A stretch of DNA of 64,000 nucleotides from Schmidtea polychroa (lineage: Eukaryota), in the NCBI GenBank assembly GCA_044892525.1, contig CM097885.1, forward strand, positions 81,654,001-81,718,000, given 5' to 3'. Shown here piece by piece: positions 32,154-63,653 of this stretch; position 1 is the stretch's first letter, and the number at the start of each line of letters is the position of its first letter. The notes below the pieces were generated by a model. The model was not told where the DNA came from. It worked only from the letters and a program-made list of their open reading frames with translations, and did not search any database. The translations under genes were made by a program, and so were the position numbers.

Positions 32154-33068
32154 TTAACAAAATTTTAGATTTATAAGAAATTACAAATTTTTGGAATTTC
32201 TGACTTCTTTACTTCACAATAAAAATATTGCTTTAAAGATCTTTAGCATATTGGACTTATAAGATCATAGTTAAGATTTTCAAAGTTCTCATTTATGGTA
32301 TGCAAAAGAAAAACTATATAATTTTCATATTTTCTCAGTTGGCAACAGGGTCATGTCGAAATTAGCGACCGTTTTGTTTTAATGCTTTGACATTTGGTGA
32401 AAATGCATTACAAGTTACAGATGTGTTGTTTTTGATATTTTAGTAAGAATTATCATGTATTTTTCAATTGTTTTACTAAGGCTGTATCCAGTCTGTTCTA
32501 ATCTTTGTTTCTTTCTCATTATTGGATTCGATTCGGTTAAACAAAAGCAATAATTAACTATTACTTTTGTTGGGCTAAAACGTGGAGTTTCGAAAACTGG
32601 AGCGAATAGAAAAGTAATCCTTGAAAAATAAATGAAATAAGATAAAAATATAAAGTACCATAGAAATCTCACTAGTAAATAGGAAGGAACAATAAAATAA
32701 CAATAAAAGAATAAGAATAAGTAAACAAACTAAATAAAATCCAATAAACCCCTTGAGATTTAGAAATAAAGCGATTTAGGACCCAGCAGATGAAATAGAA
32801 TAAAATAAGTAAAAAAGTGACAACAAATAAAAGAGAAATTTAAGAAATAAATAAAAAAAAATAAAACTATCTTTAAGTCTAATTAAAACAAGAAATTATA
32901 CTACCATAAAGTAGCAATAAATCCACAGGAAAAATAGGAGAAAAATAGTAAAAACAAGAAAATAAATAAAATAATAATAAGAGATAAGTCAGGTCATCAA
33001 AAATTTAAAATACGATGATAAAAACATAAAAATAATAATAAATAGTAAAAATACAAGCAGGTAGCGTC

Positions 33069-33094
33069 CTGATTGGACGAAAAATACTATATAT
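33069..33094 (+). promoter_or_regulatory. Candidate LTR promoter: inverted CCAAT box plus TATA-like box
   Basis: CTGATTGG (reverse complement CCAATCAG) at 33069-33076 and TATATAT at 33088-33094, directly after a ~480-bp A-rich tract. Confidence 0.35.
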
Positions 33095-35453
33095 GTAACG
33101 TGAAAAATTAGACGACAACCACTTTTAATTTTTCACGATTACAGGTAAAATTTTAGAAAAACTTAAGAACCACTTTTAATTTTTCACGATTACAGAGCAT
33201 AGACTTCAGATATTTCACCGAATTCAGGACTAGAATCGCAAACGCTAATTCGAGAGATTTTCAGAATTTACCTTCAATTAATTTGAAACCAGTTTAAACT
33301 CGATTTCGTTCCAGTTTTTGAAACTATCGGTAGGCCGATTGATTTATATGTATTAGTTAATTTATTAGTGATGAAAGACAAAACTCATTTCGTAAAATAA
33401 ATTTATTGAAATACAAATGGCCTTTTCTTCATGGTGCCGGCGACTGTACCATCTGAGAGCTCCCAGTATGATGTGGATGAGTTGGAAATGTACCACGGCA
33501 GAGAACACAACAGTGGGAAGGTTGGCCCTCATAAGAAATCCCGAAGATGCTGAAAATGAGAATGTGATATTTGCAGAGAAGGATATTTATCATGTGAGAA
33601 ATCTACCAAGGTTATGATGAGGCTGCGGTTGTGTGGAATGAATAACATCATACTTGGAGTCCAAATGATAGGGTCGCCGGGTGAGCTTTATTGATCCATT
33701 TATTTTTACTGATTCATTTGCTACTATTTGATTCATTCATTCATTTTATTATTCATAAATTGTATATTAAATGTTGATTTTGTGAAAGACGAGTCAAACG
33801 GTCCCTCACGACGATGCAAGAACGGCGGCAGAGATGATTGCCTTCTTGGGTGGGTCATGAGGGGTGAGGAGACTCCGCAGGTGGAATACTGTTGGGAGTA
33901 GAATTTCTCACATCGAGCGCGATCTGATAGAGGATCTTTCGTTTTCTTTTATGAAGTCACGCTGAAGTTCCAGAATAAATAATGTAAATTTCCAAAGTCG
34001 GAGACAATTTTTCGGATTGAGATCAGTAGTTCGTTGTTGTTAGGAAAATTTGCTTTTCCGTCGAATATTGAAGGATGTCTGAGTAGGGATGGGCGATGAA
34101 TTGTTAGAGTTTTCACTGGAAGAGCTGCTAAGCCCTTAAAAATTGAACCCCGAGAGGTACATTGCAGGGACATTAGCGAGTAAACCCATTCATTTACTAA
34201 TTTAGACTTTAGCTTGACATTGAATATCTGATAAAGTTTGGTTTGACGTTGACAGCGGCTCGTCTAAAAGGGGAAAGTAAACAAATTTTTTGATAAAGAA
34301 ATAAATCACTTGCCGTGAGTCCGAGTGAAGATATCAATAGCGATAGGAGAATCATTAGTTGCCCATGGCCAGATAAGTTTCCGAGGGGGAAAATCGGCTG
34401 ATAATTTGATAAAGTCATCGAACGAGTTGATTTAGAAGGCGGCAGTCGATCGAGTGTATTGAGTGGTCTTATCGTGAGTCGACCTAATATCGAAAATCCA
34501 GAAAACAGAATAATTTTTATCTACTGAATCCGCAAGTCACCCACACAATCGAATTTCTTGAGTTTTGGACACACCAACTGAGTACCCGTCTCAACTAGAG
34601 CATCTCTCTACAACTCTACCTCTATTAATCGCTCGCCCACATGTACACATGCATCACACTCAGATTAGGTCACAGTGCACCTGTGGATATCATCATTACC
34701 TAATCATAGGGAGAGAGTCGTAAACTTGTATCTGCTAGTGGACCACTGGATTGCGTCAGAGAACATGGCGATGCGACGAGAAATTTTTTGTGTCAGTGTG
34801 CAAGTCGCTAGTTAAATGCACCAACATGCATCGTAACGAACCCGTCGATAGTTGAGGGTACAGATAGACAATCAAATGAACACATAACTGCGCCCGATTT
34901 AAGCGTCACTATGACGATGTTTATGACGTTAAATTGAAATAACTAATTTGTAATCCATGATAAAAATTTTAAGCGAGGGTATTATGATTTTCTTACAAAC
35001 CCGAGGGGTCTACATACAAGACGGGGTGTCCCGGTAATTGCCGATTTTCCGTTCATCATATAGCCCGCGTAGAATCTAACGACGTAGCAGCAAAATGAGT
35101 AAAATATAATTGTTAAAATGTAATAACGATAATTAAGATAATAGCGTTCATAGTAACGAAGTAACAGTCATGCAGTAGTTGAAGATAGTCAAACCCAAAA
35201 AGTATACCTAAAAGCTAGCATAATGAATTGTTTTCACGAATCCCGTTTTCTTCTCATAAAGTAGTAATGATTACATGGGTTAGTTTGGATGTTTGAGATT
35301 GCATGAAGGTGAATGTTTGCCAACGGGGTAGATTGGTAGGCCACTCTCGGATAACTTGGTCGAGGAGATCTTAAATTTCGTTTTCCGAAAATATGAATAA
35401 CACCCCAGTGAATTTTTTTTTCTATTTTTAATAAAAATTCCTTAACGATTTAG

Positions 35454-36218
35454 ATGAATACCTCAGCCAGTTCCGGGAAAACCCTCAGACCTTGCTTTTC
35501 CTGTGCTGATAAAAATGCCGATATCGCACAGCTCCACTTGTACATCGGGGAATTGAAGAAGAGAATTGACCTCTATGAGGGAACGTGGTTCTCCCCACCA
35601 CAAATGAAGGAGGAGAAGAGCAAGATTCTGCGTTTGGAGCACTGCCGTGACAGTCTCCTGGAAGAAAGCAGGTGCCAGAGGCTAACCATAAAGGCCCAAT
35701 CAGAGGCACTGCACAAGGTGTATTCCGAATCAGAACTAGCGAAGCGAGTTCGCGAGTACCCGATACAAGATGGGACTAACGTGTTCCCAATACACCACAA
35801 ATTAGCTGAAACCTCATCAATATCCAGTTGTAAAGGGCATGGCCCACAAATGCCGCCAATTCCCGCCCCAGTTCTTTCGGGCGATCGACCTATTGCTGGC
35901 GGTTCATCGGACCCTATCTTGGCTCCAGTACTCGTGCCACACCTCCTTCAGTCCCCAGCAGAAGCTGCACTCCCCCATCGAAAGCGTAAGCGGCTGACGC
36001 GTTCTGAAAAAAATCAGAAGCGTAGAAATGCCATGGCCGCGCTCGAAGCATCGTTATCTGTGGCCAAAGCAACTATCAAGGAAATTACAGTTACCCATTC
36101 CATTCCTACAAAGGAAGTATTCCGGGTAGTTCCGGCCGGCAGTATCAAATTCCTCGAAGATCGCCGGTTGCCCGTTGACATCGACGAGATGCTCGCAGAA
36201 GGAGGAGCATTCTCGTAG
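35454..36218 (+). CDS. LTR-encoded 254-aa protein of unknown function (CxxC, coiled coil, Pro-rich, basic NLS-like)
   Basis: ATG-initiated, GC-richer than its flanks; PCFSC, RKRKRLTRSEKNQKRR; acceptor-like CTTAACGATTTAG directly before the ATG. Confidence 0.7.
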   Translation: MNTSASSGKTLRPCFSCADKNADIAQLHLYIGELKKRIDLYEGTWFSPPQMKEEKSKILRLEHCRDSLLEESRCQRLTIKAQSEALHKVYSESELAKRVREYPIQDGTNVFPIHHKLAETSSISSCKGHGPQMPPIPAPVLSGDRPIAGGSSDPILAPVLVPHLLQSPAEAALPHRKRKRLTRSEKNQKRRNAMAALEASLSVAKATIKEITVTHSIPTKEVFRVVPAGSIKFLEDRRLPVDIDEMLAEGGAFS

Positions 36219-36760
36219 CCAATTCTCTCTCGGGTCTCGATTCCCCTGCTATTACGAACGAACTTGAAGAAGCGACGTTATCTCGTGACTAATCCTTAAT
36301 GTTTTGCACTTGTTTAAACAATGCTGAATGTAATTTGATGTTCCGTTCTAATATAACTGTTCGATTTTCTTTGATTGTGTAAATTGTATGTATGATTTGC
36401 TACGGTTGAATTGCATGAGAGAAGGATCACGAAAATATAGTAGAAACTTAAATGTCGTACCTTTTGGACCAGGGTCGGACCGAATGATGCGTAAAGAATG
36501 GGTAAGACCTTCTATGGCACCGTAGAACCCGAACCGAGAAAGGGTTAGGAGTAGTCCTAAGGCAGGGGCTCACCTGCTAACTCTTTCCAACCCGTGTGAG
36601 CAGTACCAACGTGGAACATCACCACGGGCTCATATGTGGGAATATGCGAATGATCATTTGGAGTGCGTGAGGGAAGGATCTGAGTAGAATAATGACACCT
36701 GATGTGTATGATAATCATGCCTATATATTTTCTTTCCCCCACATACGCCAACATGATTTT

Positions 36761-36778
36761 TGGGGGCTCAGCCGGGAT
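36761..36778 (+). promoter_or_regulatory. Primer-binding site, tRNA-Pro type
   Basis: TGGGGGCTCAGCCGGGAT matches the canonical tRNA-Pro PBS TGGGGGCTCGTCCGGGAT at 16/18; it lies 7 nt after the LTR end. Confidence 0.88.
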
Positions 36779-37230
36779 GAATTCGATTTGTTGATTACCC
36801 ATTATTGTGTTATGATGTGTTAGATTAACAATTTAATTAATTATGATTAAAAATGGAATCGGGACTGAAACGAATCGATATCGTAATACAATAGAATGAT
36901 GATACGAACTGAAAATAGAGCATGTATGAATAAAGATGAACCTAAATGAGTATGAATGTATATGATAGAGTATGATGAGAGAAGGAAACGGGAATTAGTT
37001 ACTTTGTTTAATTTTAATTTATTAAATTAAAAAGGGGAGACAAAAGAAAGTAATGACAATAAAATTAAAAGATTAAAGTCAAAAATACGACGGGGATTGT
37101 TAAAAAGACTAAATAAAATACGAAAGCTAGAAACAATAACAAATAAAAGAGAAACGAATATTAAATACAACGTAATAATATTATTGCTAATACTAGTAAG
37201 AACAAATAATAACAACACATTCATTTAGAT

Positions 37231-37710
37231 ATGTCAGACGCTAGACAACATCTACAACAGCTAAGCCGGTTCGTCGAAATAGAAAATGATTCAATAAAAA
37301 CATTAAGGGAAAAACTGAAACAAATAGAACTGCTAGAACAACAAAGCCACAACGCACCGCTGATATCCAAACAAAACTTTCTAACCGACAGATTAGGATC
37401 AACAAATACCGATACCGACTTGTCGATTCATTACCAATGGTTTCAGCAACGTCTCGACGACCCAGCGCTGAACATCGAATATGTGAGGATACGCGAACGA
37501 GTCAAAACTCTGTCTCAGCGGATACGAACATCAATAGTAGAGAAAGCAGCGGCCTTGAGAACTTGTAACATTTGCAAGATGCGACCTGTCAAAATTCTGA
37601 TTCTACCTTGTGGGCACCTTAGCCATTGTGACGAATGCGCCGCCAGTTTAATCCGGTGTTCTATGTGCACATGTGTAATAAAAGAGAAGCACACAATCTA
37701 CTTCAGTTAG
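37231..37710 (+). CDS. Coiled-coil protein with C-terminal IAP-type C3HC4 RING (putative E3 ligase), 159 aa
   Basis: CNICKMRPVKILILPCGHLSHCDECAASLIRCSMCTCVIKEKHTIYFS at the extreme C-terminus; no BIR visible. Confidence 0.85.
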   Translation: MSDARQHLQQLSRFVEIENDSIKTLREKLKQIELLEQQSHNAPLISKQNFLTDRLGSTNTDTDLSIHYQWFQQRLDDPALNIEYVRIRERVKTLSQRIRTSIVEKAAALRTCNICKMRPVKILILPCGHLSHCDECAASLIRCSMCTCVIKEKHTIYFS

Positions 37711-38292
37711 GTACGTGATCGTCGCTCGGTGAGAGAAATTGGATGGTGGAACAATTAAACTAAAATATTTTAATTTTTTTTGATTTGATTCATTAATATT
37801 TTAATAATGGTATCATATATCATATGTAGCATGGACTGAATAATCAATAAATCATTTTTGTGTGTTTATTTCATTTTGCGAAGCTATAATTTGATCTGTT
37901 GTATCATAATTTTCACCATGAAGAAAGGGTATTTTAAAATTTAAATCGAGTACATAAAGTGGAGCTAGTCCCAACATAAGATTAAAGGGGGAATAAACCG
38001 AGCCACCTTCGGGAGGTACGATAATTGAAAAACCGTTCGGGAGGGGATAACCGATCACCCCGAGTAAGAGATGTAAGGCGAGGTACCATCGCGAATATTG
38101 AAAAGTTTCTGCGGTATGGCTGATCACCATACCAATGCAGAAATGGATCAATGCGATCGTTTTGCGTTTTAAGCAAGGGGGGAAAGGGGAAACCTTCCAA
38201 AGCGGTACAGATTAAGTCGACAAATAAAAGTAAAAATAGGAAGATGACAGTATAGAATAAAGACAAAAAGGAACGGAAGCATGCAGAGTTTA

Positions 38293-38812
38293 GAGATATT
38301 AAGGCCGAGCTGTTGAAAAGTCCAGCCGGTCAGGAAAAATTAAAACTGAGCTGTGAAAAGTCCAGCCAGTCGGAGATATTAAGGCCGAGCTGTTGAAAAG
38401 TCCAGCCGGTCAGGAAAAATTAAAACTGAGCTGTGAAAAGTCCAGCCAGTCGGAGATATTAAGGCCGAGCTGTTGAAAAGTCCAGCCGGTCAGGAAAAAT
38501 TAAAACTGAGCTGTGAAAAGTCCAGCCAGTCGGAGATATTAAGGCCGAGCTGTTGAAAAGTCCAGCCGGTCAGGAAAAATTAAAACTGAGCTGTGAAAAG
38601 TCCAGCCAGTCGGAGATATTAAGGCCGAGCTGTTGAAAAGTCCAGCCGGTCAGGAAAAATTAAAACTGAGCTGTGAAAAGTCCAGCCAGTTCGGAGATGA
38701 AGAAGATTGAGCTGTTGAATAGTGCCAGCCAGTCGTAAGATCGAGTTGTTGAATAGTCCAACCGGTCAGGAGAAGAAGATTGAGCTGTTGAAAAGTGCCA
38801 GCCAGTCGTAAA
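38293..38812. repeat. Tandem array: 5 perfect 80-bp units (each a dimer of ~40-bp subunits) plus degenerate subunits
   Basis: Units start at 38293, 38373, 38453, 38533 and 38613; shared core GAGCTGT(T)GAAAAGTCCAGCC(G/A)GTC. Confidence 0.95.
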
Positions 38813-39475: not shown

Positions 39476-42400
39476 TTGATTCGTGTAAGCAAAGGCAACA
39501 CGATATCATATTTTCATTGTAGACATCCATCCAACCAAGTCAATTCAGAACCAGCTCAAGAGGAATCCAGAGAATATACAAACAACCCAGGAAAAGCAAT
39601 TCAGAACCCGCACAAAGGAAGACAATATCAAAACCGAACTCGACCAATTCAGCAGACGCTAACCGTAGAAAATCCACGTGAAAAGACAGAAAAGAGTAAA
39701 AGGAAAATCACGGATAAACCCAACCTTAGATCTTCAAGTAAGCCAGGAGACGTATTATTTTCAGGAGACGAATTAGATCAACTCAAAAGAGGACGATCAT
39801 TTAGGCAGCAGAGAGGAATATCACAAGGAGCAAAAAGACCCCACAAAACACCGATATACGATCAAGAAAACCCCACAGCCGGACATACGCCCAGCCGATC
39901 TAGAAGTAGAGAAAGTCTATCCGATATAACCAACAACCTAACCGGGTCAACAGAAGAATTATCCGTCCATAGCTTAGCTACATCGCTGGAAAATTTAAAA
40001 GAAATAATAGAGTTTCAAGAACCAATTAAGATGAATGTGGTAAAAACTGACGAGTATAAGGAAAAATTTAGAGGCGAACCATTCAACGGGAATGCGAACA
40101 AGTTGGCAACGTTCATAACCAACTTTGAAGTCTATATCGATGTGTGTGGATGGACACCCGAAGCAATTAGTAAACGAATGCCTCTGTTTTTGTGCGATAG
40201 CGCACTCGAAGTATATCTGGAAGCAAAAGAAAGAAATACGAAATTAGACAATTGGGAAAACATCAAAACATTTTTGAGAAAAACATTCGGAGCCAGCAAA
40301 CCAATAAATCAAGCGTTAGGTGAACTGGCAAGTAGAAAACAAAGAGCAAACGAGTCAATTACGTTATACGCAAGTGAATTGCGAAGATTGGCAAAGAAGG
40401 CCATGAACGGAAACTTGCCGGAGGAAAATTTAATTGGTTACTTCATAGAAGGACTACGCCGAGAAGAGGTAAGGGCCTCGGTGGGATGTCAAATGTGTAA
40501 AACACTAGAAGAAGCCATAGATTGGGCCACAAGATGCGAACTACACCTCCCAGCACAAATGAACGTCATGCAAGAGGAGGGAAGAATCGCAACAGCAACG
40601 GTGAAAACGGAAAATGGGGATAACAATAATCATGAACCCAAGATGAATCAGTTTATACCAGGAGCACATCAAATTTTCAAACCACCACAAGGACGATCAA
40701 ACGGGAATAACAGTGAACGCAACAACTCGAACAATGGGAACAACTTTAATAATCGACGAAATATGAACGATAACAAACAATGCCGAACATGCGGTAAACC
40801 AGGACATTGGGATAGAGATTGTTACCGAAACGCAAATTGCAATAGGTGTGGACGACGAGGACACACGGAAAATATATGCCAATCGAGAGGATGTTTTAAC
40901 TGCGGGCAACCAGGTCATATCTCAAGAGACTGTCGAGAAAGGAGCCAACAGCAACGACCACCACAGCGAAATAATAACTATGCACCAAATCCGCAACGAC
41001 AAAGTAATCCTAGTGAGGGAAAGCAAATGAATGTGATGCAAGAAATTTCACAAATGAAGCAGATGATGCAACAAATGATGAGACCGAGACAAGAGCAAGT
41101 ACCACAACCAACCCAGAATATACGCATGATGAGAAGCACCGAGAATCTTAACAATTATGAAGTGCAACAACATGCACAAGAATGGCAAAGACTACAAGCT
41201 GAAGAAGAAAGGATAAAAAGAGAGCGAATTCAGCAGCGACAAGAACAACCACTACGAATAAATATGATGAGGATGGTAAAGGAGATAAAGGAGCAATATT
41301 GTTACAATTACGGTAAAAATCCAAGAGTTGTACCTATGAGCGAACCAGAGAAACCGAAAGAAACAATTACAGCAGCAAAAAAGGAAAATTCAACAACACC
41401 ACTAAAAGGAAATCAGAGAATTCAGAAAATATTTTGGAAAAAGATAAAAGATAAAATCGAAAGAGAAAATGAGCAAACAAAAACAGAAGCAGAAGCAGAA
41501 AATAACGAAAATGAAAAACAGATTAATCATCTAAAGCATAATATGATACGAGAATTAGACTCAGAGGAGCTAACGATACTCGAGAACAACAAGTTAAAGA
41601 AAGTACCAAGAATGAGAAATTTACGAATTAATATGATGAGGACAACAAAGAAGGTGTTGTCAACAGATGACGATGAGGATTATGTGAGTAGCCTTGGTGG
41701 AGAAATGTTACAGTTAAATGAAAATATCGACCAACTAAGAGAAAAGATCGGAGCAGAGGAAGATGAAAGAGAAAGCGACGTGACAAGCGAAAGCGAAGAC
41801 GAGAATATCGAAATGAAATTGAGAAAAGAAAGAGAAGAAGCGATAAAACAAGTAAAGGAAATACTTCCAGTAGTGGTAAGAAACCAGGAATTCATTGACT
41901 TCATACCATACCGACGCTTCATACAAAAGATAATGAAACTAGAAAGAAACGAAAAAGACCTAATACCAAACGAGGAAAAAGCGATAATAAAGAAGTATAT
42001 GGAAAAAATGAAACAAGCGGAGACAACACGCTATGTAATAAAAATCGGAACGAGTAAAGGACTCGAGAGAATATGGATAAAAAATGCAGTCACAGACGAG
42101 CTTTTTGATTGGATAAGAGAACATTTGGGCAGCTCGAGAAAGAAAGAATACCTGTATCAATATCAAGGAGAACAAATCAAACCAGACATGCACCTAATAG
42201 ATGCATTGATCTGGCCAGGAGAAACTCAAATATTGAAATTGTATAAAGAGAAACAACCAGCAAATATTCACGAATGGGCTAAAGACGCCAAGGCCGAATA
42301 CGATTTTAACATCAAGCTGAAGCTGGAACAAATAAAACAATGCACCTTGCGACGAAATCTAGATAAATTAATCAAACAAATTCAAGAACAAGTCGAAGAT

Positions 42401-45400
42401 AACTGGGATTTACTCATAGCAAGACGAACTCCAGACATGCATGAGCTAATGAGCCGATTACGAGATACAGAATTGCTCAGGATGAGCGATTGGAGAACCA
42501 TAAATTTGATCCACAAATATGGCAGGTTGAAAGAAACGCAACCGCAGAAATTAGAAATAACCATATGGTTACCAAACGAGGAGAAACGACGAATAAAGAT
42601 GAGTAATCAGAGTACGGTAGATGACTTAGTAACCAAGATAAACCAAGAGATAACGGAAAAAGTACGAAGCGAGAGTAGCGACGGGATGATAGATGACGTA
42701 GTCATGATGTACGATAAAATAATATTACGGGCCGAAGACGACACCTCGCTAAGCGAAATGGGAATGTGGGATAATCATCAAATCATCAGAATATTGCCCA
42801 TGGACGAATTCCGAACAAGAGATATAACATACCAGAAAGAAATACGAGACAGGATGAAAACGCTATATCAAAAATCAGTAGAAATAATTGAAATTCATCA
42901 ACAGTGGTTAAAAGAAAAAGAGCTTCAAGGAAAAATAAAGAAACTAAGTGTGAGATCCTGCAGACGAACCCCATGGGAAAGGACGTGGAATGCGGAAAAC
43001 AAAGAATGGAAAATCAGGAAAGGGATTTTCGTGGAAACAGACATTGGTGAGATAGAAAGTGAATCAGAAGAAGAGGAAGATGAACCTCCAAAATACGAAG
43101 AGGACGAAATAGAATCGACATCGGACGACGGAAGCGAAACGGATGTTACATCAGAAAGTGAAACGGAAACCAGACATATTCATGCGATGAAAAAGAAAGA
43201 ACGCGAATATGCCGATATGGATAGCGAAGAAGCGATGGAAGCTCGAGAACGAGAAGAGAAGGAAAGATATAAACAATTAGGTGATATCTTAGCAACGGGA
43301 ACAAAAAATCAAAAACGTCAAGTAATAGCATTGGCTAACATCATCCTAAAGACATCAGAGAATATCCACAATCTAAGAGAAATGGCGAAAGCGATTGAGG
43401 AATACAGACAATATAACGAATGGTACCCAGAACAGCTAGAACAAATTATTAGGAAATGGAGAAACCAAGAATGGGCACAAGATACCCAGGAAAGGTATCG
43501 TATCCGAGTCAAGTATCCCGACAAAAGCATTGAGGATACAGAAGTACATCCAACAACAAAGATCAGAGAGTTAAAAAAGAAATTAGCATACGAAACTCCG
43601 TTTCACCTACAACTATTCGGAAAATCGTTGGATGATAATGCAGATGTCGGAATAACACCCATGAGATTGGGGGAGATCAATGTATTGACAATGGCAGAAA
43701 CATTGGGAAAACCGATTAAAAGGAAGAACAAATCCAGTAAACCTACGAAAGGTAGCTTGAGTACACCAAGCCCTAACAAAGTGGCAAGTAAAACGAATGA
43801 AACCGAGGAAATCGAGGAAATTATATTGGAAGACAGCGATGAAGGAGCTGGAGAAAGATCACCAATTCTGGTAAGATGGCCGACAGGAGCCGAAATATGG
43901 ACAACAAGCCAACCGTCAACTAGCTATCAGCAGCCAAATAAGCTGAGTATCGAGGAGATTATCGATAATACAACAGAAACCGAAACCGACGAACAATTCC
44001 AACGACAGAAAGGACCAACGAAAGCAACACCAGAAGGTCAAACGGACAAAATAATAGACGAATGGAACGAATGGCTAAGAAATAACGATAGCTCATTGCC
44101 AAGAACGGATAACGAGAGAAACCCGAATTATGAAAATACAAGGGAAGCCGGAACAATGATGGAAAAACGGGCAAAAGGGAGACCCAAGAAGCAAGGAGAA
44201 AAACCGGAATTTAAAACTAGAGAACAACTGAAACAAGAACAAGGACAAGTCAGATTAGAGAAACTGGATAAAATAGTGTGGGATCTAAAAGAGGCCCAGC
44301 CAACTATCGAAAGAGGCGAAAAATGGATACGAGAGCTAGTAAAAGATATGCTAATAATAACGAACCCACAATTGCGACGGTTATGGCAACGAAAAGTAGC
44401 AAGCGTAGACGCCAGACAACTATGGAATACAATATCCGGAATAATTCCGAAATTAATCAAAGAGAAGACAAAAACCACTAAAACCGATTGGGAAGAGACA
44501 AGAAGAGTAATTGAACAATTAACTTTAAACGCAAACGACGACGAACATCATTTAGTAGTATTAACGTATCTAATGTACAATTTGATGGGATTAGCAGCAA
44601 GGAAAATACCTAACAAACAATTCGCAAATCATGTAGAAATGACCGTCACAATCATTGAAAATACAATCGAACCACATATCATCCGCGCCGGTGGGTGGAA
44701 AAGACTCATACAAGCGCCACGAAAAAACGAGCAAGAGAGATCAATGCAAATTCGGTTGAAGAAGTTACTACATGAGCTAGAATGGGAATTGCCATTGAAA
44801 GACCCAGCCAGCAGAAAAGCGTCGATTAATTCACTAATGATGACCATGATGATATGGATGCTCTGCACCAGTGGAGCCGCGGGATTTACTATTTACGACT
44901 GTGACAATTCGATAATAGGAGAAAGATACTCCCTGAGAGATATAGAGGAATGTAGACAGGCGTCTCCGAATAAATTAGATATAGTAAAGAAGAAAGTCTC
45001 CTATCACGTATACCAAGAATCAGATTTCATTAGAACGCAAGCTAGAGAATGCGTAGTATCAAAGAAAGTGTTGGCATATTACTGTGGACAATACTCATAT
45101 TCAACCCTTATATTACCGGGATTAGATAAAGAAATAGTACCTATACAACGGGAAGACTGTAAAGAGCTTTTTAGAACCGGAGCAATGAGAATCAGGGATG
45201 GAGTAACAATACACGGACAAAGCGGAATGATCAAGACAGAAAGTATCTATGTCGCTGGACGAGTAAAATCAACTGATGGATCATGTAACGGAGGCACATA
45301 TACGATCCGAGGAGAGGTGATATCGGGAGTAGTAGTAATTGAGTCCTACACAGTGGAGTTGAAGGAATACGAAGCACAATTCGACGCGAACAACTATCAA

Positions 45401-53911: not shown

Positions 53912-54079
53912 AAAGGATTATGACTGTATATAGATTGTAAAAAGTAAGTAGGAATTATTTATTTATATAACAGTATTCTATATTTTTATATAAGCGCGGT
54001 ATCAATAGTATATAATGATGGGGATAATTAATATGAAAATAAAATTAGATAAGGATTGAAAAGTATATATAAATTAAGA

Positions 54080-54439
54080 ATGGAGCGAATAGGCGAGGAA
54101 GTAAACCACAGTACAACAACCGAGGAGATGTGGAAACAACAATGTGCAATGTTAACTCAAGTGATTTCGAATTTACAAGAACAAGGACTCGCTGTACAAA
54201 GAAGCTTAGTCGAAAGTTTAAATAAAGGCTTCAATTATGTAAGAATAATCGAAGACCAACGAATGAAAATAGAACAAATGCAGCGAGAGATAGACCGAAT
54301 ATCACGATACAGCCAGGTGCAAGAAGAGGAGTTAATAAGAATCGCGGAAGAGATGGAGCGAGAGGAGATAGAAGACTGGTCAGAATGGTTAACCAACAGG
54401 GAAGAGGGCGGACAAGAGGCCGACTCTTCCAGCCAATAA
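54080..54439 (+). CDS. Accessory coiled-coil ORF (~119 aa from ATG 54080), function unknown
   Basis: Glu/Gln/Arg-rich helical sequence with the element's A-rich codon style; the listed start at 54056 is TTG. Confidence 0.55.
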   Translation: MERIGEEVNHSTTTEEMWKQQCAMLTQVISNLQEQGLAVQRSLVESLNKGFNYVRIIEDQRMKIEQMQREIDRISRYSQVQEEELIRIAEEMEREEIEDWSEWLTNREEGGQEADSSSQ

Positions 54440-54528
54440 ATATAACCTAAAATAGCAATGTAAATAAATGTAAATAAAAATACGAAACTGTACCGGTAAC
54501 GAATATATGTATATATATAATTATAGAA

Positions 54529-55917
54529 ATGGATAAGCGACAACGAGAAGAATTCAGAGAAATTGTTGAACAAATTAGAAAGTCCACCACAATTCGAATA
54601 CACAACCATGTAACGTGTGGAATATGCAAGAGCTTATTAAGAGAACCTCACCAAACCAGATGTGGATGCAGAATGTGCAGAGAATGTGTAGAGGAGATAA
54701 TAAAGAAGGGACCACAATGGTGCCCAGTATGCAAAGAAACAATGATAACAAGTTTGGGAGATACAAACGAAGATAAAGCAGCTGTAAAAGATATGTTGAA
54801 TGCAAACCTAGGATGTAAAAACACCCCATGTAATTGGCGAGGAGTGATATGGGAAGTGAGGCAACATACGGAGCAATGTGAGTATAAAATCAGTCAATGC
54901 AAACGTTGCCAAGAAGAGATTAAAGTCAATGAAGAAGCAGAACATCAAAGTCGATGCGAAGAAAGAATAGAGAAATGCGAGTATTGCGGAGAAAACGACA
55001 CCTGGAAGAAACTAATCAGTCAACATCACAACATACAAGAGGAGAAAGTGTGCGCAGAATTCAGAGGAGAATGCCCCAACAAATGCGATAAACCCGGAGT
55101 AATAAAACTCGCTCAACATCTAAAAGAGTGTGAAAGAAAAAAGATAACGTGTGTGCTAGGAAAATGGGGATGTCCGAAACAATTACACCGAGGAGAATTA
55201 CCCCAACACCTAGCAGAAAACGTATCAACACACGCGGAAATATGGTCAACGGTTGTACAGGAAAACGAAAGGAAAACCGAAAACTTAGAAAGAGAAATAG
55301 TCTCGCTAAAAGCGTTGGTAAAAGAACTATTGGAAGAAAAGGAAGCATTTGAAGAGGCGAGAACAAGTACAAAGATACAGACAGATCTAGTAGAAACTAG
55401 CAACATTATGGTGAAAGAATTACATCAAAAAGTAAGCGAATTAAACCTCAACGAATTAATACCAACGGCTCCGTACATATGGAAAATAACGGGAATAAAA
55501 GAGAAGATGCAGAGAGCGAGAAATGGAAAGGATACAACATTACTAAGTCCAGCATTCTACTCATGGAAAAACGGGTATAAAATGAAAATGAAAGCATACC
55601 CCAATGGGGATGGAAGTGCATACGGAACGCATTTCTCAGTATTCTTCTTGATGTGCAAAGGGCCATACGACGAGTTAATAGAATGGCCATTCAAAGCAAA
55701 AATAGACCTTGCAATGATGAACTATCAAAGTATACACGAACAGAGTTTCCATACAGCGGGAAACCTCGTATGTTACCAAAGGCCCTTGGAAGAAGAAGGA
55801 CCAGCAACTGGAGCACCAAATTTCATCCTACAGCGGAAAGTAGAAGACATGACGAGAAACGACACTATATACATAAAAATAGCGGTGAGGCGTGATGGGA
55901 AGAGTAGGACTGAGTAG
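54529..55917 (+). CDS. TRAF: Intronless full-length TRAF-family protein (RING, TRAF zinc fingers, coiled coil, MATH), 462 aa
   Basis: CGICKSLLREPHQTRCGCRMCRECV...CPVC; CKNTPCNWRG; YIWKI, SPAFYS..NGYKM..KAYPNGDG...HFSVFF, WPF. Confidence 0.93.
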   Translation: MDKRQREEFREIVEQIRKSTTIRIHNHVTCGICKSLLREPHQTRCGCRMCRECVEEIIKKGPQWCPVCKETMITSLGDTNEDKAAVKDMLNANLGCKNTPCNWRGVIWEVRQHTEQCEYKISQCKRCQEEIKVNEEAEHQSRCEERIEKCEYCGENDTWKKLISQHHNIQEEKVCAEFRGECPNKCDKPGVIKLAQHLKECERKKITCVLGKWGCPKQLHRGELPQHLAENVSTHAEIWSTVVQENERKTENLEREIVSLKALVKELLEEKEAFEEARTSTKIQTDLVETSNIMVKELHQKVSELNLNELIPTAPYIWKITGIKEKMQRARNGKDTTLLSPAFYSWKNGYKMKMKAYPNGDGSAYGTHFSVFFLMCKGPYDELIEWPFKAKIDLAMMNYQSIHEQSFHTAGNLVCYQRPLEEEGPATGAPNFILQRKVEDMTRNDTIYIKIAVRRDGKSRTE

Positions 55918-56135
55918 GGAGACGAATAATTTTGTATATACTAATTGTAAATATCGGCGTATATATCCAGTAAAATATTATATAGTAGTGTAGAAAATTC
56001 CCCCAAATCTACCAAAGGTAAACTTAAGCGAAAAATTCCTAAAACAACTCCTATAACGAATTATAAAAATAAATAAATAATAAACCAGATATAAGCGTAC
56101 AACGTTAAGTTAATGATATCGTTATTTAGACAAGG

Positions 56136-57173
56136 ATGACACAAGAAGGAACTGAAGCCCCAAACCACGAAACCAAAGTCAATAAAATCCATAAGGGAAA
56201 ATGGGTCAAAGTAATGTTACAATTGACGAACCAGACCCACAACCATCTCGAAGAGGCCAGGGAATACGAGAATAACAAATATCAGTGGTTAATAAACAAT
56301 TTAAGAGCCGAAGCAGAAGCATGCAAAAGAGCCTCTAAGTGGGCATCATTGGAAAACACTCGCCAAGAAGCACACAGCCACTATTTAAAACAGTTAGTGC
56401 AGGAAGCACGGAAACGATTGACGGACGAAAACACAAAACGAGAAGCAGAAAAACAAAAGGAAGGAAGGAAAATGAATCACCTATTGGCAGAAGCCCGAAA
56501 CTGGAAGCGGCAGAACAAAGAGATGAAAAAAGAAATGAAAGAATTGCCTATGAGATTAGAATACGAAAGCGAACAAGGCAAATGGGAGGAAAATCTGGTC
56601 ATAAGAGAAGAACTGAAACGGCTCAGAAAGATTGCGGCCCGAAGCCAAACATGGCAGACCAAAGCCATGGAATTTGAAAGACATCTAGCCATGAAAATCT
56701 CCATAAGGGAGCACGAGAATGCCGCAATGGAAGAACTGATACTTCAACAGTCAGGACGACTCGTGGAACTAGTAAATAAGGTCGCAGAACTAGAACGAGA
56801 TGTCAACGGATACCAAGGAGCTCTGGAGCAGAGAAATATGGTACTGGCGGGGAAAAACAAAAAGTTAGAAAACGAAAGGAAAATGTATAACGAAAATCTT
56901 AAAAATCTGGAGATAGAGATCAAGAAATGGGAAAACGGCGAAAAAGCGGAAGAGCTAGAAAAACAGATAGAGGTAAGAGACGATGAAACCAGGTATCTAA
57001 CATACCTGTTGGACGAGGAACTTAACGTGTCAAGAGCACTAAGAGACGAAGTGCAAGAACTTAGAGCGCAGATTCCCCGGTACTACATCCCATTTGATCC
57101 CATCGCACTCCAATTACAAACGTTAGTAGAAAGCGATGAGGGATATGTAGGCCAGGAAGAGACCTTTGTATAA
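56136..57173 (+). CDS. Accessory long coiled-coil protein, 345 aa, function unknown
   Basis: Long ATG ORF, E/K/R/L-rich heptads, bounded by AT-rich spacers. Confidence 0.75.
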   Translation: MTQEGTEAPNHETKVNKIHKGKWVKVMLQLTNQTHNHLEEAREYENNKYQWLINNLRAEAEACKRASKWASLENTRQEAHSHYLKQLVQEARKRLTDENTKREAEKQKEGRKMNHLLAEARNWKRQNKEMKKEMKELPMRLEYESEQGKWEENLVIREELKRLRKIAARSQTWQTKAMEFERHLAMKISIREHENAAMEELILQQSGRLVELVNKVAELERDVNGYQGALEQRNMVLAGKNKKLENERKMYNENLKNLEIEIKKWENGEKAEELEKQIEVRDDETRYLTYLLDEELNVSRALRDEVQELRAQIPRYYIPFDPIALQLQTLVESDEGYVGQEETFV

Positions 57174-57347
57174 AGATAAAAGGAAAGATAAAAAATATAA
57201 AAATCGGGACCTGTATCTCAACCAAAAAAATTAATGGTACAGTAAAAGTATGAAAGGGACTGTAACCCTGATTATAAAATAACATATAAATGTATAAGTA
57301 TAAGCCGCACTGTAGCGCAATTATTAATTATGTATATATTATAGAAA

Positions 57348-58049
57348 ATGAACACTGAAAACGGACAACCCAGCATAACATCTATAATCGAGTTAGAAGA
57401 GGGAGAAATTGAAGTTGATGAAGTGGAGAGGAAGAAAACTATCAAGGAAGAATTACAAGAAGAGAGACAGGAAAACGAAAGATTAGTTGAAAGGTGGAGA
57501 GATAATCGAAAAATGATTAAAGTATTGAAAAGAGAATATATCTTGTTAGAAGGAGTAAAGAAAGAGGTAGAGGAAGAAAACGAATGGCTTCACGAGCAAA
57601 GAAAGCGAGGGAGAAATTGGGAAAAGATTGCGGAAGAATTATGGCAGGAGAGGGCCAGTCGAAAGGCCGACGAAGTGATTAGTGACTATTGGAAAACCGA
57701 GGCACGGAAACACCAAGAAAGCCTGAAAGAGTTACAACTCCAACTACACCAAAAACAGAAAGAATGTGAGATAATGAGACGAATGAACAACAAATACCAG
57801 GAAATAGACAACGAAGAAGACGGGGAAAGGGAAAATGATTTCCTACAGATAATGAACCATAGAAACCTCGAAAGAGCAACACAAGAAATAAAAGCACTAA
57901 AAGAAAAAATAATAACCCTAAGGCAACAGTTAGACGAAAGAGACAAACAATTAAAAGTGCTACCCGAATTGAGAAAACGAGTAATAAAAGCAGAAACGAG
58001 AGTGATGAGAACATCCGAGAAAACCCGTAAAAAGAAAACCCGGCAATAA
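57348..58049 (+). CDS. Accessory coiled-coil protein, 233 aa, function unknown
   Basis: ATG ORF, E/K/R-rich, basic C-terminus RKKKTRQ. Confidence 0.72.
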   Translation: MNTENGQPSITSIIELEEGEIEVDEVERKKTIKEELQEERQENERLVERWRDNRKMIKVLKREYILLEGVKKEVEEENEWLHEQRKRGRNWEKIAEELWQERASRKADEVISDYWKTEARKHQESLKELQLQLHQKQKECEIMRRMNNKYQEIDNEEDGERENDFLQIMNHRNLERATQEIKALKEKIITLRQQLDERDKQLKVLPELRKRVIKAETRVMRTSEKTRKKKTRQ

Positions 58050-58104
58050 TTAAAGATGAATGATCAATGTAAATAATTGTAAATAAAAATTTTCGTATAG
58101 TAGT

Positions 58105-58740
58105 ATGTGGTTCGGAGCAACCTTGGTGACAATAATGATGATAGCGATAAACGGGAGACCCATGTGGCAGCCAATCCCAACATTCTGGGAGAATCCCGAG
58201 AAACAGCAAAACCCTTTAACCAAACTAAAAAGCGAGAGAAAGCTCCCCAACAACATCCCGAAACAATGCTGGAACAAAGTCGTCTGGAAAAAACTTCAAA
58301 TGCAACTCCACCTACAAACCCAAAAAATCGAACAGCTCGAAATTCTCTTACAAGAACAAACCACCCAACAATCCTTGAAGGAAATCATCATGAAGAAGGA
58401 AGTAAAAGAAAGCCAAGTCTTACTCTATACTACCATCAGTGAAACCCTTATCATCTGCGCACTAGTCATCTGGAAAGCGTATGATATTCATCGAACATGG
58501 AGAAGAAACCAGTCACTATCCGAAAAACACGAAAGAAAGAACCTACGATCGAAAAATAAACATAAACGAGCAGTACATTTTCAACAACCAAACCCACCCG
58601 ACCAAATGCAACAAAATCTATCCCCTGACCAAATGCCTGTTACAATCCAGCTCCCCACGATAACAACTTCGACCAGCCATCCGACCCAGAACTCAACCAA
58701 CCAAGACAGTAATAACATTCCGAACCTTGAGATCATGTGA
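58105..58740 (+). CDS. Accessory putative membrane protein, 211 aa
   Basis: N-terminal hydrophobic MWFGATLVTIMMIAING, internal TM-like ISETLIICALVIWKAY, P/Q/T-rich tail. Confidence 0.62.
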   Translation: MWFGATLVTIMMIAINGRPMWQPIPTFWENPEKQQNPLTKLKSERKLPNNIPKQCWNKVVWKKLQMQLHLQTQKIEQLEILLQEQTTQQSLKEIIMKKEVKESQVLLYTTISETLIICALVIWKAYDIHRTWRRNQSLSEKHERKNLRSKNKHKRAVHFQQPNPPDQMQQNLSPDQMPVTIQLPTITTSTSHPTQNSTNQDSNNIPNLEIM

Positions 58741-58931
58741 CATCGACTATTCATAAACTTTGTGTGTATAAATCCGGTCACCTAAAGTGGCCACTGCTTG
58801 CTTATATTTGTCCTTTGATCTGTTTAATTAAAGTATTATTTAGTTATTTTAATTTTATGTTTGTGTGAATGTTGACCGTGAAATTAGTTGTTATGCCGAA
58901 AAAGGTATGAGTTAAACGTATGATATTATGT

Positions 58932-58970
58932 GAATTGCGGGGCGCAATTTTAACGGGCCCCGGAGTGATT
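58932..58970 (+). promoter_or_regulatory. Atypical plus-strand priming region (hairpin plus interrupted purine tract)
   Basis: AATTGCG-GGG-CGCAATT hairpin, then TTAACGGGCCCCGGAGTGATT immediately before the 3' LTR; no clean polypurine run. Confidence 0.4.
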
Positions 58971-61900
58971 TGTTGGGCTAAAACGTGGAGTTTCGAAAAC
59001 TGGAGCGAATAGAAAAGTAATCCTTGAAAAATAAATGAAATAAGATAAAAATATAAAGTACCATAGAAATCTCACTAGTAAATAGGAAGGAACAATAAAA
59101 TAACAATAAAAGAATAAGAATAAGTAAACAAACTAAATAAAATCCAATAAACCCCTTGAGATTTAGAAATAAAGCGATTTAGGACCCAGCAGATGAAATA
59201 GAATAAAATAAGTAAAAAAGTGACAACAAATAAAAGAGAAATTTAAGAAATAAATAAAAAAAAATAAAACTATCTTTAAGTCTAATTAAAACAAGAAATT
59301 ATATTACCATAAAGTAGCAATAAATCCACAGGAAAAATAGGAGAAAAATAGTAAAAACAAGAAAATAAATAAAATAATAATAAGAGATAAGTCAGGTCAT
59401 CAAAAATTTAAAATACGATGATAAAAACATAAAAATAATAATAAATAGTAAAAATACAAGCAGGTAGCGTCCTGATTGGACGAAAAATACTATATATGTA
59501 ACGTGAAAAATTAGACGACAACCACTTTTAATTTTTCACGATTACAGGTAAAATTTTAGAAAAACTTAAGAACCACTTTTAATTTTTCACGATTACAGAG
59601 CATAGACTTCAGATATTTCACCGAATTCAGGACTAGAATCGCAAACGCTAATTCGAGAGATTTTCAGAATTTACCTTCAATTAATTTGAAACCAGTTTAA
59701 ACTCGATTTCGTTCCAGTTTTTGAAACTATCGGTAGGCCGATTGATTTATATGTATTAGTTAATTTATTAGTGATGAAAGACAAAACTCATTTCGTAAAA
59801 TAAATTTATTGAAATACAAATGGCCTTTTCTTCATGGTGCCGGCGACTGTACCATCTGAGAGCTCCCAGTATGATGTGGATGAGTTGGAAATGTACCACG
59901 GCAGAGAACACAACAGTGGGAAGGTTGGCCCTCATAAGAAATCCCGAAGATGCTGAAAATGAGAATGTGATATTTGCAGAGAAGGATATTTATCATGTGA
60001 GAAATCTACCAAGGTTATGATGAGGCTGCGGTTGTGTGGAATGAATAACATCATACTTGGAGTCCAAATGATAGGGTCGCCGGGTGAGCTTTATTGATCC
60101 ATTTATTTTTACTGATTCATTTGCTACTATTTGATTCATTCATTCATTTTATTATTCATAAATTGTATATTAAATGTTGATTTTGTGAAAGACGAGTCAA
60201 ACGGTCCCTCACGACGATGCAAGAACGGCGGCAGAGATGATTGCCTTCTTGGGTGGGTCATGAGGGGTGAGGAGACTCCGCAGGTGGAATACTGTTGGGA
60301 GTAGAATTTCTCACATCGAGCGCGATCTGATAGAGGATCTTTCGTTTTCTTTTATGAAGTCACGCTGAAGTTCCAGAATAAATAATGTAAATTTCCAAAG
60401 TCGGAGACAATTTTTCGGATTGAGATCAGTAGTTCGTTGTTGTTAGGAAAATTTGCTTTTCCGTCGAATATTGAAGGATGTCTGAGTAGGGATGGGCGAT
60501 GAATTGTTAGAGTTTTCACTGGAAGAGCTGCTAAGCCCTTAAAAATTGAACCCCGAGAGGTACATTGCAGGGACATTAGCGAGTAAACCCATTCATTTAC
60601 TAATTTAGACTTTAGCTTGACATTGAATATCTGATAAAGTTTGGTTTGACGTTGACAGCGGCTCGTCTAAAAGGGGAAAGTAAACAAATTTTTTGATAAA
60701 GAAATAAATCACTTGCCGTGAGTCCGAGTGAAGATATCAATAGCGATAGGAGAATCATTAGTTGCCCATGGCCAGATAAGTTTCCGAGGGGGAAAATCGG
60801 CTGATAATTTGATAAAGTCATCGAACGAGTTGATTTAGAAGGCGGCAGTCGATCGAGTGTATTGAGTGGTCTTATCGTGAGTCGACCTAATATCGAAAAT
60901 CCAGAAAACAGAATAATTTTTATCTACTGAATCCGCAAGTCACCCACACAATCGAATTTCTTGAGTTTTGGACACACCAACTGAGTACCCGTCTCAACTA
61001 GAGCATCTCTCTACAACTCTACCTCTATTAATCGCTCGCCCACATGTACACATGCATCACACTCAGATTAGGTCACAGTGCACCTGTGGATATCATCATT
61101 ACCTAATCATAGGGAGAGAGTCGTAAACTTGTATCTGCTAGTGGACCACTGGATTGCGTCAGAGAACATGGCGATGCGACGAGAAATTTTTTGTGTCAGT
61201 GTGCAAGTCGCTAGTTAAATGCACCAACATGCATCGTAACGAACCCGTCGATAGTTGAGGGTACAGATAGACAATCAAATGAACACATAACTGCGCCCGA
61301 TTTAAGCGTCACTATGACGATGTTTATGACGTTAAATTGAAATAACTAATTTGTAATCCATGATAAAAATTTTAAGCGAGGGTATTATGATTTTCTTACA
61401 AACCCGAGGGGTCTACATACAAGACGGGGTGTCCCGGTAATTGCCGATTTTCCGTTCATCATATAGCCCGCGTAGAATCTAACGACGTAGCAGCAAAATG
61501 AGTAAAATATAATTGTTAAAATGTAATAACGATAATTAAGATAATAGCGTTCATAGTAACGAAGTAACAGTCATGCAGTAGTTGAAGATAGTCAAACCCA
61601 AAAAGTATACCTAAAAGCTAGCATAATGAATTGTTTTCACGAATCCCGTTTTCTTCTCATAAAGTAGTAATGATTACATGGGTTAGTTTGGATGTTTGAG
61701 ATTGCATGAAGGTGAATGTTTGCCAACGGGGTAGATTGGTAGGCCACTCTCGGATAACTTGGTCGAGGAGATCTTAAATTTCGTTTTCCGAAAATATGAA
61801 TAACACCCCAGTGAATTTTTTTTTCTATTTTTAATAAAAATTCCTTAACGATTTAGATGAATACCTCAGCCAGTTCCGGGAAAACCCTCAGACCTTGCTT

Positions 61901-63156
61901 TTCCTGTGCTGATAAAAATGCCGATATCGCACAGCTCCACTTGTACATCGGGGAATTGAAGAAGAGAATTGACCTCTATGAGGGAACGTGGTTCTCCCCA
62001 CCACAAATGAAGGAGGAGAAGAGCAAGATTCTGCGTTTGGAGCACTGCCGTGACAGTCTCCTGGAAGAAAGCAGGTGCCAGAGGCTAACCATAAAGGCCC
62101 AATCAGAGGCACTGCACAAGGTGTATTCCGAATCAGAACTAGCGAAGCGAGTTCGCGAGTACCCGATACAAGATGGGACTAACGTGTTCCCAATACACCA
62201 CAAATTAGCTGAAACCTCATCAATATCCAGTTGTAAAGGGCATGGCCCACAAATGCCGCCAATTCCCGCCCCAGTTCTTTCGGGCGATCGACCTATTGCT
62301 GGCGGTTCATCGGACCCTATCTTGGCTCCAGTACTCGTGCCACACCTCCTTCAGTCCCCAGCAGAAGCTGCACTCCCCCATCGAAAGCGTAAGCGGCTGA
62401 CGCGTTCTGAAAAAAATCAGAAGCGTAGAAATGCCATGGCCGCGCTCGAAGCATCGTTATCTGTGGCCAAAGCAACTATCAAGGAAATTACAGTTACCCA
62501 TTCCATTCCTACAAAGGAAGTATTCCGGGTAGTTCCGGCCGGCAGTATCAAATTCCTCGAAGATCGCCGGTTGCCCGTTGACATCGACGAGATGCTCGCA
62601 GAAGGAGGAGCATTCTCGTAGCCAATTCTCTCTCGGGTCTCGATTCCCCTGCTATTACGAACGAACTTGAAGAAGCGACGTTATCTCGTGACTAATCCTT
62701 AATGTTTTGCACTTGTTTAAACAATGCTGAATGTAATTTGATGTTCCGTTCTAATATAACTGTTCGATTTTCTTTGATTGTGTAAATTGTATGTATGATT
62801 TGCTACGGTTGAATTGCATGAGAGAAGGATCACGAAAATATAGTAGAAACTTAAATGTCGTACCTTTTGGACCAGGGTCGGACCGAATGATGCGTAAAGA
62901 ATGGGTAAGACCTTCTATGGCACCGTAGAACCCGAACCGAGAAAGGGTTAGGAGTAGTCCTAAGGCAGGGGCTCACCTGCTAACTCTTTCCAACCCGTGT
63001 GAGCAGTACCAACGTGGAACATCACCACGGGCTCATATGTGGGAATATGCGAATGATCATTTGGAGTGCGTGAGGGAAGGATCTGAGTAGAATAATGACA
63101 CCTGATGTGTATGATAATCATGCCTATATATTTTCTTTCCCCCACATACGCCAACA
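58971..63156 (+). repeat. 3' LTR (4,186 bp)
   Basis: Direct repeat of 32568-36753; followed by the TSD CTTT. Confidence 0.96.
61857..62621 (+). CDS. Second copy of the LTR-encoded 254-aa ORF
   Basis: Translation identical to 35454-36218. Confidence 0.68.
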   Translation: MNTSASSGKTLRPCFSCADKNADIAQLHLYIGELKKRIDLYEGTWFSPPQMKEEKSKILRLEHCRDSLLEESRCQRLTIKAQSEALHKVYSESELAKRVREYPIQDGTNVFPIHHKLAETSSISSCKGHGPQMPPIPAPVLSGDRPIAGGSSDPILAPVLVPHLLQSPAEAALPHRKRKRLTRSEKNQKRRNAMAALEASLSVAKATIKEITVTHSIPTKEVFRVVPAGSIKFLEDRRLPVDIDEMLAEGGAFS

Positions 63157-63653
63157 CTTTAAATGAATTCTAATCAGCCAAACGTCATTAAAACAAAATA
63201 GAAAAGAAATTACTAATTCAAACAAATAGAAGTTTACTAAGAAATTGTGTCACTTGTATATCGTTTGAAGCGTGAAAGTGAATTCAGTGAATTATTTGTT
63301 TGACAGTTGAAAATGAGAACTTAATTTAATTAATTTTTAATTATTTGAATTACAACTTCTTCTTTAATTAAAATGCAATTATTTTGATCATTTAAATAAA
63401 TTGTAAAAAACGTCTTGCAATGTGGGCAAAGTTCAAAATGATAATGGAGACTGCGGGAAAATAATCAAAAAGGTCAGATGTTGTCAAACATTACGTCATG
63501 AAGGCTCCGTGGGAGTTCTCTCAGTTTTTGGAGTGGGTCATAAACATGTAGCGCCTTAAATTGAAATATTTATAATTTTGAATCAGCTGTTATGATGATC
63601 CGTAATTCTGAGTTTTTATCTAAGTTAATGATAAATTTATTAATATTATATAC

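Follow-up and report, generated by a model that had tools for sequence, protein, structure and literature searches.

The locus described here raises the question of whether a retroelement of more than 30 kb, carrying an envelope and several additional genes, is a transposon or a virus. We analyzed a 64,000-nt window of the Schmidtea polychroa genome (contig CM097885.1, positions 81,654,001 to 81,718,000; all coordinates below are positions in this window), which contains a complete Ty3/Gypsy element with long terminal repeats (LTRs), 30,589 bp in length (32568-63156, plus strand). We consider it probable that this is an intact and recent 30.6-kb element, likely a sister of Burro1 that lacks a BIR gene, predicted to be primed by tRNA-Pro, and likely enveloped and organized like a complex retrovirus. 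Established are the anatomy of the element, its catalytic motifs and match to a tRNA primer, the 4-bp duplications, the numbers of copies and the purifying selection that acts on it. We infer from the sequence that its polyprotein would be threaded through a membrane, its genes expressed by splicing, its cargo directed at host signalling, and its envelope used for budding or fusion between cells.

An intact and very recently inserted element

The internal part (36754-58970; 22,217 bp) is enclosed by two LTRs of 4,186 bp each (5′ LTR, 32568-36753; 3′ LTR, 58971-63156; both plus strand). Both begin with TG and end with CA, align without a gap, and differ at 1 of 4,186 positions. A target-site duplication, CTTT, adjoins the 5′ LTR on the left (32564-32567) and the 3′ LTR on the right (63157-63160). 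The primer-binding site (36761-36778, plus strand), which starts 7 nt after the LTR, is identical at 18/18 bases to the 3′ end of a host tRNA-Pro(TGG) gene plus CCA, and the element would copy itself by reverse transcription primed with this tRNA. The element has the following features of Ty3/Gypsy elements: protease, reverse transcriptase (RT), RNase H and integrase in this order with their catalytic motifs, TG...CA LTRs, a tRNA primer site and a short target duplication. The element contains one long open reading frame (ORF1), of 4,811 codons from stop to stop (39476-53911), and seven distinct accessory ORFs, all on the plus strand; the LTR and the leader hold one each, and the other five follow ORF1. 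We discounted minus-strand ORFs of 92-144 amino acids (aa) inside the element as probable shadows of plus-strand genes.

These observations agree with a sequence-only reading of the same DNA, which had described an intact 30.6-kb element with LTRs, target duplication and primer site, one stop-free 14.4-kb ORF with seven accessory ORFs, and LTRs with no net indel, TG/CA ends and a 4-bp duplication. It had also called the element very young; the LTR alignment that it proposed for dating gave the single mismatch reported above.

The genome contains many similar copies. Protein identity is 98-100% for all of the 150 scored RT matches, 73 of which belong to open frames of at least 4,700 codons. The subfamily of the window element (A) has 66 exact LTR-primer junctions and 291 exact LTR ends; together with its closest sister, subfamily B, it accounts for 611 exact junctions, and a third subfamily (family C) for 366. 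Nine other copies, six of A and three of B, were taken from the best RT matches and examined at both ends. Each shows a 4-bp duplication of its own and, at its ends, the gene order of the window element, with LTR pairs 0-3 substitutions apart (0, 0, 3, 0, 1 and 1 mismatches in the six A copies). The family is therefore young and not an assembly artefact, and the window element itself was inserted very recently.

Assemblies can collapse or polish large repeat families, and the LTRs might owe their near-identity to gene conversion or polishing, the copy being older than it looks or a mosaic of the assembly. We regard this as highly improbable, since each copy carries its own LTR variant (five of the six other A copies differ from the window LTR at 78-197 positions, as against 0-3 within a pair) and its own duplication; the window element has all eight genes open and a unique flank. 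The 3′ flank has one match in the genome, namely itself. This flank and the nine other copies also dispel the concern, raised in the sequence-only reading, that the locus might be a chimera or misassembly. The DNA flanking the element has a G+C content of 20-28%; together with the presence of a Burro1-like family in the genome (see below), this points to a dugesiid planarian host, as expected for the Burro clade.

Subfamily B is 88-90% identical to A in ORF1, and its LTR cannot be aligned with that of A as DNA. The 98% identity of the RTs suggested recombination between A and B, which is not needed as an explanation: ORF1 DNA is only 79-82% identical throughout. Another copy (G000:C2:91.38 Mb) has internal genes 96-99% identical to those of the window element and LTRs that are 68-86% identical in the aligned parts, its own two LTRs differing at one base; this may reflect either LTR exchange or fast LTR evolution.

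The ORF1 polyprotein and its envelope

From its first ATG, ORF1 (40031-53911) encodes 4,626 aa. The Pfam domains are ordered Gag, CCHC knuckles, a Monjiviricetes-type fusion glycoprotein, protease, RT, RNase H, integrase and ankyrins, and a short motif is repeated near the domain borders. The regions comprise (i) the Gag capsid with three CCHC knuckles (40181-40933; PF03732, PF00098), (ii) up to three putative ubiquitin-like units and a BCL2-like domain (42038-44710; weak matches, with limits set by eye), (iii) an envelope consisting of a signal-like segment, a class III fusion ectodomain and a transmembrane anchor (44825-46621; PF24664, E 6e-72), (iv) protease (DTGA), RT (YIDD), RNase H and integrase, recognized by Pfam and motifs (47222-50230), (v) ankyrin repeats (50918-52180; PF12796, E 9e-16) and (vi) a predicted second membrane protein (52898-53911). 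In the second region, the ubiquitin (E 0.084) and Bcl-2 (E 0.031) matches are both under the Pfam cut-off, and a sequence search of the PDB with aa 524-1600 gave no match; the corresponding matches in a more distant family, D, are stronger (6e-5 and 0.013, respectively). Pfam detected no dUTPase between the protease and the RT, where a 145-aa spacer is present. Compared with subfamily B, the ratio of nonsynonymous to synonymous substitution rates (dN/dS) is 0.009-0.11 in 18/19 segments of ORF1; RNase H is saturated.

The envelope ectodomain was modelled, using 120 relatives as the alignment, with a predicted local distance difference test (pLDDT) score of 90. All of the solved structures listed as matches to this model are herpesvirus gB (best E 3e-13, template modelling (TM) score 0.44), and among viral models chuvirus-type glycoproteins match best (E 1e-37, TM score 0.68). 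By this modelling, the envelope has a class III fusion fold of the chuvirus G/herpes gB type. Thirteen of its 14 cysteines are kept in at least 90% of 121 aligned rows, and the dN/dS of the ectodomain against subfamily B is 0.048, a constraint as strong as that on neighbouring segments. This supports the view that the envelope is a working protein under strong purifying selection, and it might be used for budding or fusion between cells.

A different use of the envelope would be purely intracellular: the element would be a retrotransposon that never enters another cell, and the envelope would be kept for a task inside it, such as membrane attachment of Gag and Pol or budding into the endoplasmic reticulum (ER). 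Sharing one frame, envelope, Gag and Pol are produced in a 1:1:1 ratio, and Pol can be released only if the envelope at least folds and threads correctly, so the purifying selection could arise from that alone; the presence of only one N-glycosylation sequon also points this way. However, constraint extends over the whole 550-aa ectodomain (with the dN/dS given above), 13/14 cysteines are common to this envelope and free viral-type glycoproteins, and the envelope has been kept across families whose RT-RNase H regions are 51-57% identical. An exclusively intracellular role thus seems somewhat unlikely, and we favour the enveloped, retrovirus-like element.

In such an element, ORF1 would be translated as a single membrane-threaded polyprotein. 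Gag would remain cytosolic, an internal signal would pass the envelope into the ER, Pol and the ankyrins would return to the cytosol behind the envelope anchor, and a second surface protein would lie at the end of the polyprotein, the whole being cut by signal peptidase and the protease of the element. The plan of the second membrane protein (a hydrophobic segment resembling a signal, a Cys-bearing, beta-rich domain, a second hydrophobic, transmembrane segment and a tail) closes ORF1 not only in the window element, but also in B, C and D and in three distant relatives. The window C-terminal ectodomain was modelled with a pLDDT of 45 and left out of the fold search; it had no match in the Atlas, no homolog of it was found, and Pfam found FN3 in 0/7 rows. 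For the family D ectodomain the Atlas points to FN3 (score 0.93), a match that is weak by the tool's own measures. That this protein serves in attachment is a guess.

Accessory genes and their expression

The accessory ORFs, all of the plus strand, encode proteins of 254 (in each LTR), 159, 119, 462, 345, 233 and 211 aa. The LTR-borne ORF (35454-36218, with a second copy at 61857-62621 in the 3′ LTR) belongs to no Pfam family and has TAG directly before its ATG; homologs are present in the LTRs of subfamilies B (36-38% identity) and C. The leader ORF (37231-37710; 159 aa) encodes a coiled coil and an IAP-type RING finger (PF13920, E 3e-8), with no BIR domain detected by Pfam, and also has homologs in B and C. 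Downstream of ORF1 there are (i) a helical protein of 119 aa (54080-54439), with homologs in B (65-67%) and C (31%), (ii) a full-length TRAF-like protein of 462 aa (54529-55917) with RING, zinc fingers, coiled coil and MATH, identified by Pfam and structure matches, whose closest solved relatives are TRAF3/TRAF2 (E 3e-28 to 7e-28), (iii) two proteins, of 345 aa (56136-57173) and 233 aa (57348-58049), that are likely coiled coils and (iv) a 211-aa protein with one hydrophobic segment (58105-58740), the product of the fastest-evolving gene. In comparison with subfamily B, dN/dS is 0.086 for the TRAF-like gene, 0.034 for the 345-aa ORF and 0.051 for the 119-aa ORF. The TRAF, RING, BCL2-like and ubiquitin-like cargo may act on host death and immune signalling.

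Since the eight ORFs lie in one transcription unit, some way of reading each of them is needed. We propose that ORF1 and the seven accessory ORFs would be read from spliced mRNAs, in which a short LTR leader is joined to an acceptor before each start. We scored as acceptor-like any YAG ending no more than 3 nt before the first ATG, and compared accessory starts with other ATGs. Over the three subfamilies, 15/22 accessory starts have such a site (A, 5/7 against 71/602 other ATGs; B, 4/7 against 44/474; C, 6/8 against 66/642), the background being about 10%. Among the starts that miss the rule, some have AAG, and others a site as far as 11 nt away. In the window element, candidate acceptors end at about 35453, 37228, 39521, 54526, 56129, 57344 and 58100-58103. 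A stricter first rule (P 1e-11) had been fitted to A and was replaced by this neutral one. An artefact of stop codons was considered as the whole cause of the pattern and rejected, because many of the sites either lie out of frame or read CAG, and the spacing varies between homologs. Among the matches listed for positions 43200-59300 in four contig sets, two of which are only guessed to be RNA, none had a GT..AG joint or a loose end at the acceptors.

Spliced-leader trans-splicing exists in flatworms, and the accessory genes could be released by this route, in the manner of an operon, or by internal promoters rather than by cis-splicing from the LTR; acceptor-like sites with no established donor are compatible with either. 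Against them, the spacing between AG and ATG (0-6 nt) differs between homologous genes, so there is no fixed frame with a leader AUG, and the LTRs of A, B and C share donor-like sites in roughly equivalent positions, some 3.6-3.75 kb upstream of the primer site. We therefore judge both routes quite unlikely; the seven accessory genes are likely to be made by splicing in the style of complex retroviruses.

The region before ORF1 suggests an unusual start of Gag. In the region 39506-40030 (plus strand), an acceptor-like site ending near 39521 is followed by an ATG-free stretch, the last ~105 codons of which are open and conserved. Upstream of ORF1, 8/8 copies of four families are free of ATG in every frame over 514-775 nt: the ATG-free run after an acceptor-like site measures 500-660 nt in A, B and C, and in family D 775 nt are ATG-free. 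Changes in the ~105 codons fall mostly at third positions (first/second/third: 18/14/32 between A and B; 9/8/27 between two C copies), and the stretch includes an LRS motif that resembles one found right at the beginning of two relatives. It is likely, judging from these patterns, that Gag has an AUG-less extension, with the ACG near 39710, which is kept in 7/7 A and B copies and has no clear equivalent in C, as a candidate start. About 80 nt upstream of the ORF1 ATG (39710-39790) are almost unchanged between A and B, and more than half of the synonymous sites elsewhere have changed; an RNA-level signal may overlap the candidate Gag start and a second acceptor-like site here.

Relationship to Burro and other known elements

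Burro1/GYPSM1 is described, in the available part of the source, as an element of more than 30 kb with a 4,873-aa ORF1 (Gag, three knuckles, MATH, ubiquitin-like, BCL2-like, envelope, Pol and ankyrins) and a BIR (PMC6431247); size alone, as the sequence-only reading had cautioned, may thus not be new. The same text proposes that Burro elements are proviruses, likens their envelope to gypsy Env and mononegavirus glycoproteins, gives Burro-2, -3 and -4 (of Grohme et al. 2018) the Burro1 motifs plus BCL2-like, and describes a Burro-like element of Dugesia tigrina whose 5,140-aa ORF1 lacks MATH, which lies in an accessory TRAF/MATH ORF upstream (PMC6431247).

The window element resembles Burro1, and the Burro clade in general, in (i) its size and LTRs (30,589 bp, internal part 22,217 bp; clade, >30 kb and up to 25 kb, respectively), (ii) a single ORF near 5,000 aa (4,626-4,811 aa with Gag and three CCHC knuckles; clade, ~4,900-5,100 aa with 2-3 knuckles), (iii) an in-frame envelope between the BCL2-like region and the protease, (iv) the order protease-RT-RNase H-integrase, followed by ankyrins, and (v) accessory ORFs with RING and MATH/TRAF cargo. 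For the ubiquitin-like and BCL2-like domains of the clade there are weak candidate matches, and at the position of its dUTPase-like domain, between protease and RT, the window element has the 145-aa spacer in which Pfam detected none. It differs from Burro1 in lacking both MATH inside ORF1 and the BIR gene, and because of these two absences it is, by its gene content, not Burro1 as described. The class III fold predicted here (gB/chuvirus G) also contrasts with the published comparison of the Burro envelope to gypsy Env and mononegaviruses.

Both missing features occur in family C, reached by a BIR search, which has the same gene order as the window element plus MATH inside ORF1 and a 392/393-aa BIR-RING ORF. 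By content, although not by exact length (its usual frame has 4,791 codons), family C fits Burro1. It is 89.6% identical to the window element in RT-RNase H, 65% from envelope to ankyrins and 35-41% in the front half, and A, B and C form one clade (support 100/100) in an RT tree with a midpoint root and rows without named Gypsy clades. The window element is therefore likely a member of the Burro clade, sister to Burro1 but without BIR. It may well correspond to Burro-2, -3 or -4, which, by their description in the available text, are of the same size class. Like the Dugesia tigrina element, it lacks MATH in ORF1; its TRAF/MATH ORF, however, is downstream, and its ORF1 is 4,626-4,811 aa long.

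Family D (G000:C1:110.16 Mb; C3:85.55 Mb) is smaller and also bears an envelope. Its 3,334-codon frame encodes Gag, ubiquitin-like, BCL2-like, envelope, Pol and a C-terminal signal-ectodomain-transmembrane protein. The LTR is ~1 kb, RT-RNase H is 51% identical to that of the window element, and accessory ORFs of at least 110 aa are absent.

Errantiviruses such as Drosophila gypsy have a Ty3/Gypsy pol and a separate, spliced env ORF of the baculovirus F type; they share pol and the possession of an envelope gene with the window element, whose envelope differs in that it is of class III and lies within the polyprotein frame, after Gag and before the protease. In complex retroviruses (foamy viruses and human immunodeficiency virus), accessory genes lie 3′ of pol and carry cargo against host ubiquitin and death pathways. 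By analogy, the window element resembles them in its accessory genes 3′ of pol, its LTR ORF, its likely spliced expression and its cargo, which may be aimed at the same pathways; it differs in its Gypsy-type RT, a genome three times larger and a single polyprotein. Mosquito BEL/Pao elements with a chuvirus glycoprotein (PMC7642597) are likewise LTR elements with a captured glycoprotein of this type; they belong to another superfamily and, as far as the available text describes them, have far fewer genes.

Several observations weigh against the overall reading. The acceptor rule was framed after A had been viewed, and the subfamilies are kin; enrichment weakens in wider windows (B, 4/7 within 6 nt, P 0.026), and no splice donor is established. 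The alignment of the 211-aa ORF is poor and gave a dN/dS of 0.51; substitutions are saturated in three accessory ORFs. The BCL2-like and ubiquitin-like matches are under Pfam cut-offs, no dUTPase was found, and the envelope has one N-glycosylation sequon. The envelope signal is moderately hydrophobic (1.28) and a second hydrophobic stretch (1.41) follows the anchor, because of which the ORF1 topology is only a model. Choosing copies among the best RT matches favours young ones. Burro membership rests on architecture and the sister family, named Burro families having been compared by description, and the usual family C frame of 4,791 codons stands against the 4,873 aa printed for Burro1.

The sequence-only reading foresaw a gene content approaching that of a complex virus, which the domains, intact ORFs and envelope fold bear out. 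Its case for novelty finds little support: the architecture, including the envelope between gag and pol, and the provirus idea are already described for Burro in the part of the source available (PMC6431247). The present analysis adds that a sister family thrives without BIR, that the envelope under selection has a class III fold, that a further membrane protein is predicted, and where acceptors are likely to lie. The literature found on Burro is silent on splicing, initiation at a non-AUG codon and an additional membrane protein; a family map and the transcript structure may already be contained in Grohme 2018 and Lee 2026. We think it unlikely, on present evidence, that the Burro clade would be all of the following: a live enveloped flatworm virus lineage with an independent complex-retrovirus organization, a flavivirus-like threaded Gag-Env-Pol, a class III fusogen, an FN3-like attachment protein, a non-AUG Gag start, seven spliced genes and cell-to-cell spread into stem cells.

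Burro elements make up a large share of the genome in a regeneration model, and Burro1 is reported, in the available text, to protect stem cells via its BIR-RING protein (PMC13465017). Equally young but lacking BIR, and with a higher count of exact junctions once its sister is included (611 vs 366), the window family offers a natural comparison for whether success requires this benefit. Given an intact class III envelope, a predicted second membrane protein and a map of likely acceptors, whether Burro is a virus becomes a testable question.

Several minor features were also recorded. Where a polypurine tract would be expected, A, B and C have a conserved GC-rich motif, and the tract of family D is normal; in the window element, no purine-rich tract was found before the 3′ LTR, the motif lies at 58930-58970, and plus-strand priming may be unusual. 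An 80-bp tandem repeat (38293-38811, plus strand) is present in 5.5 copies with a degenerate tail. Genes for the primer tRNA, tRNA-Pro(TGG), form a long tandem array with a 475-bp period (G000:C1:130.90 Mb). Elements also occur in tandem arrays (G000:C1:72.65-72.70 Mb and 77.27-77.32 Mb), with three LTR ends 26,393 bp apart and five primer junctions ~13.55 kb apart. Distant relatives with an envelope in the polyprotein (P0001-P0003, P0005) have a second protease-like stretch after the integrase, where the window element has ankyrins. Elsewhere in the window there are a broken DNA-transposase gene (5113-6787, minus strand), which we take to be Tigger/pogo-like, and a decayed ordinary Gypsy pol in several pieces (23952-26684, plus strand).

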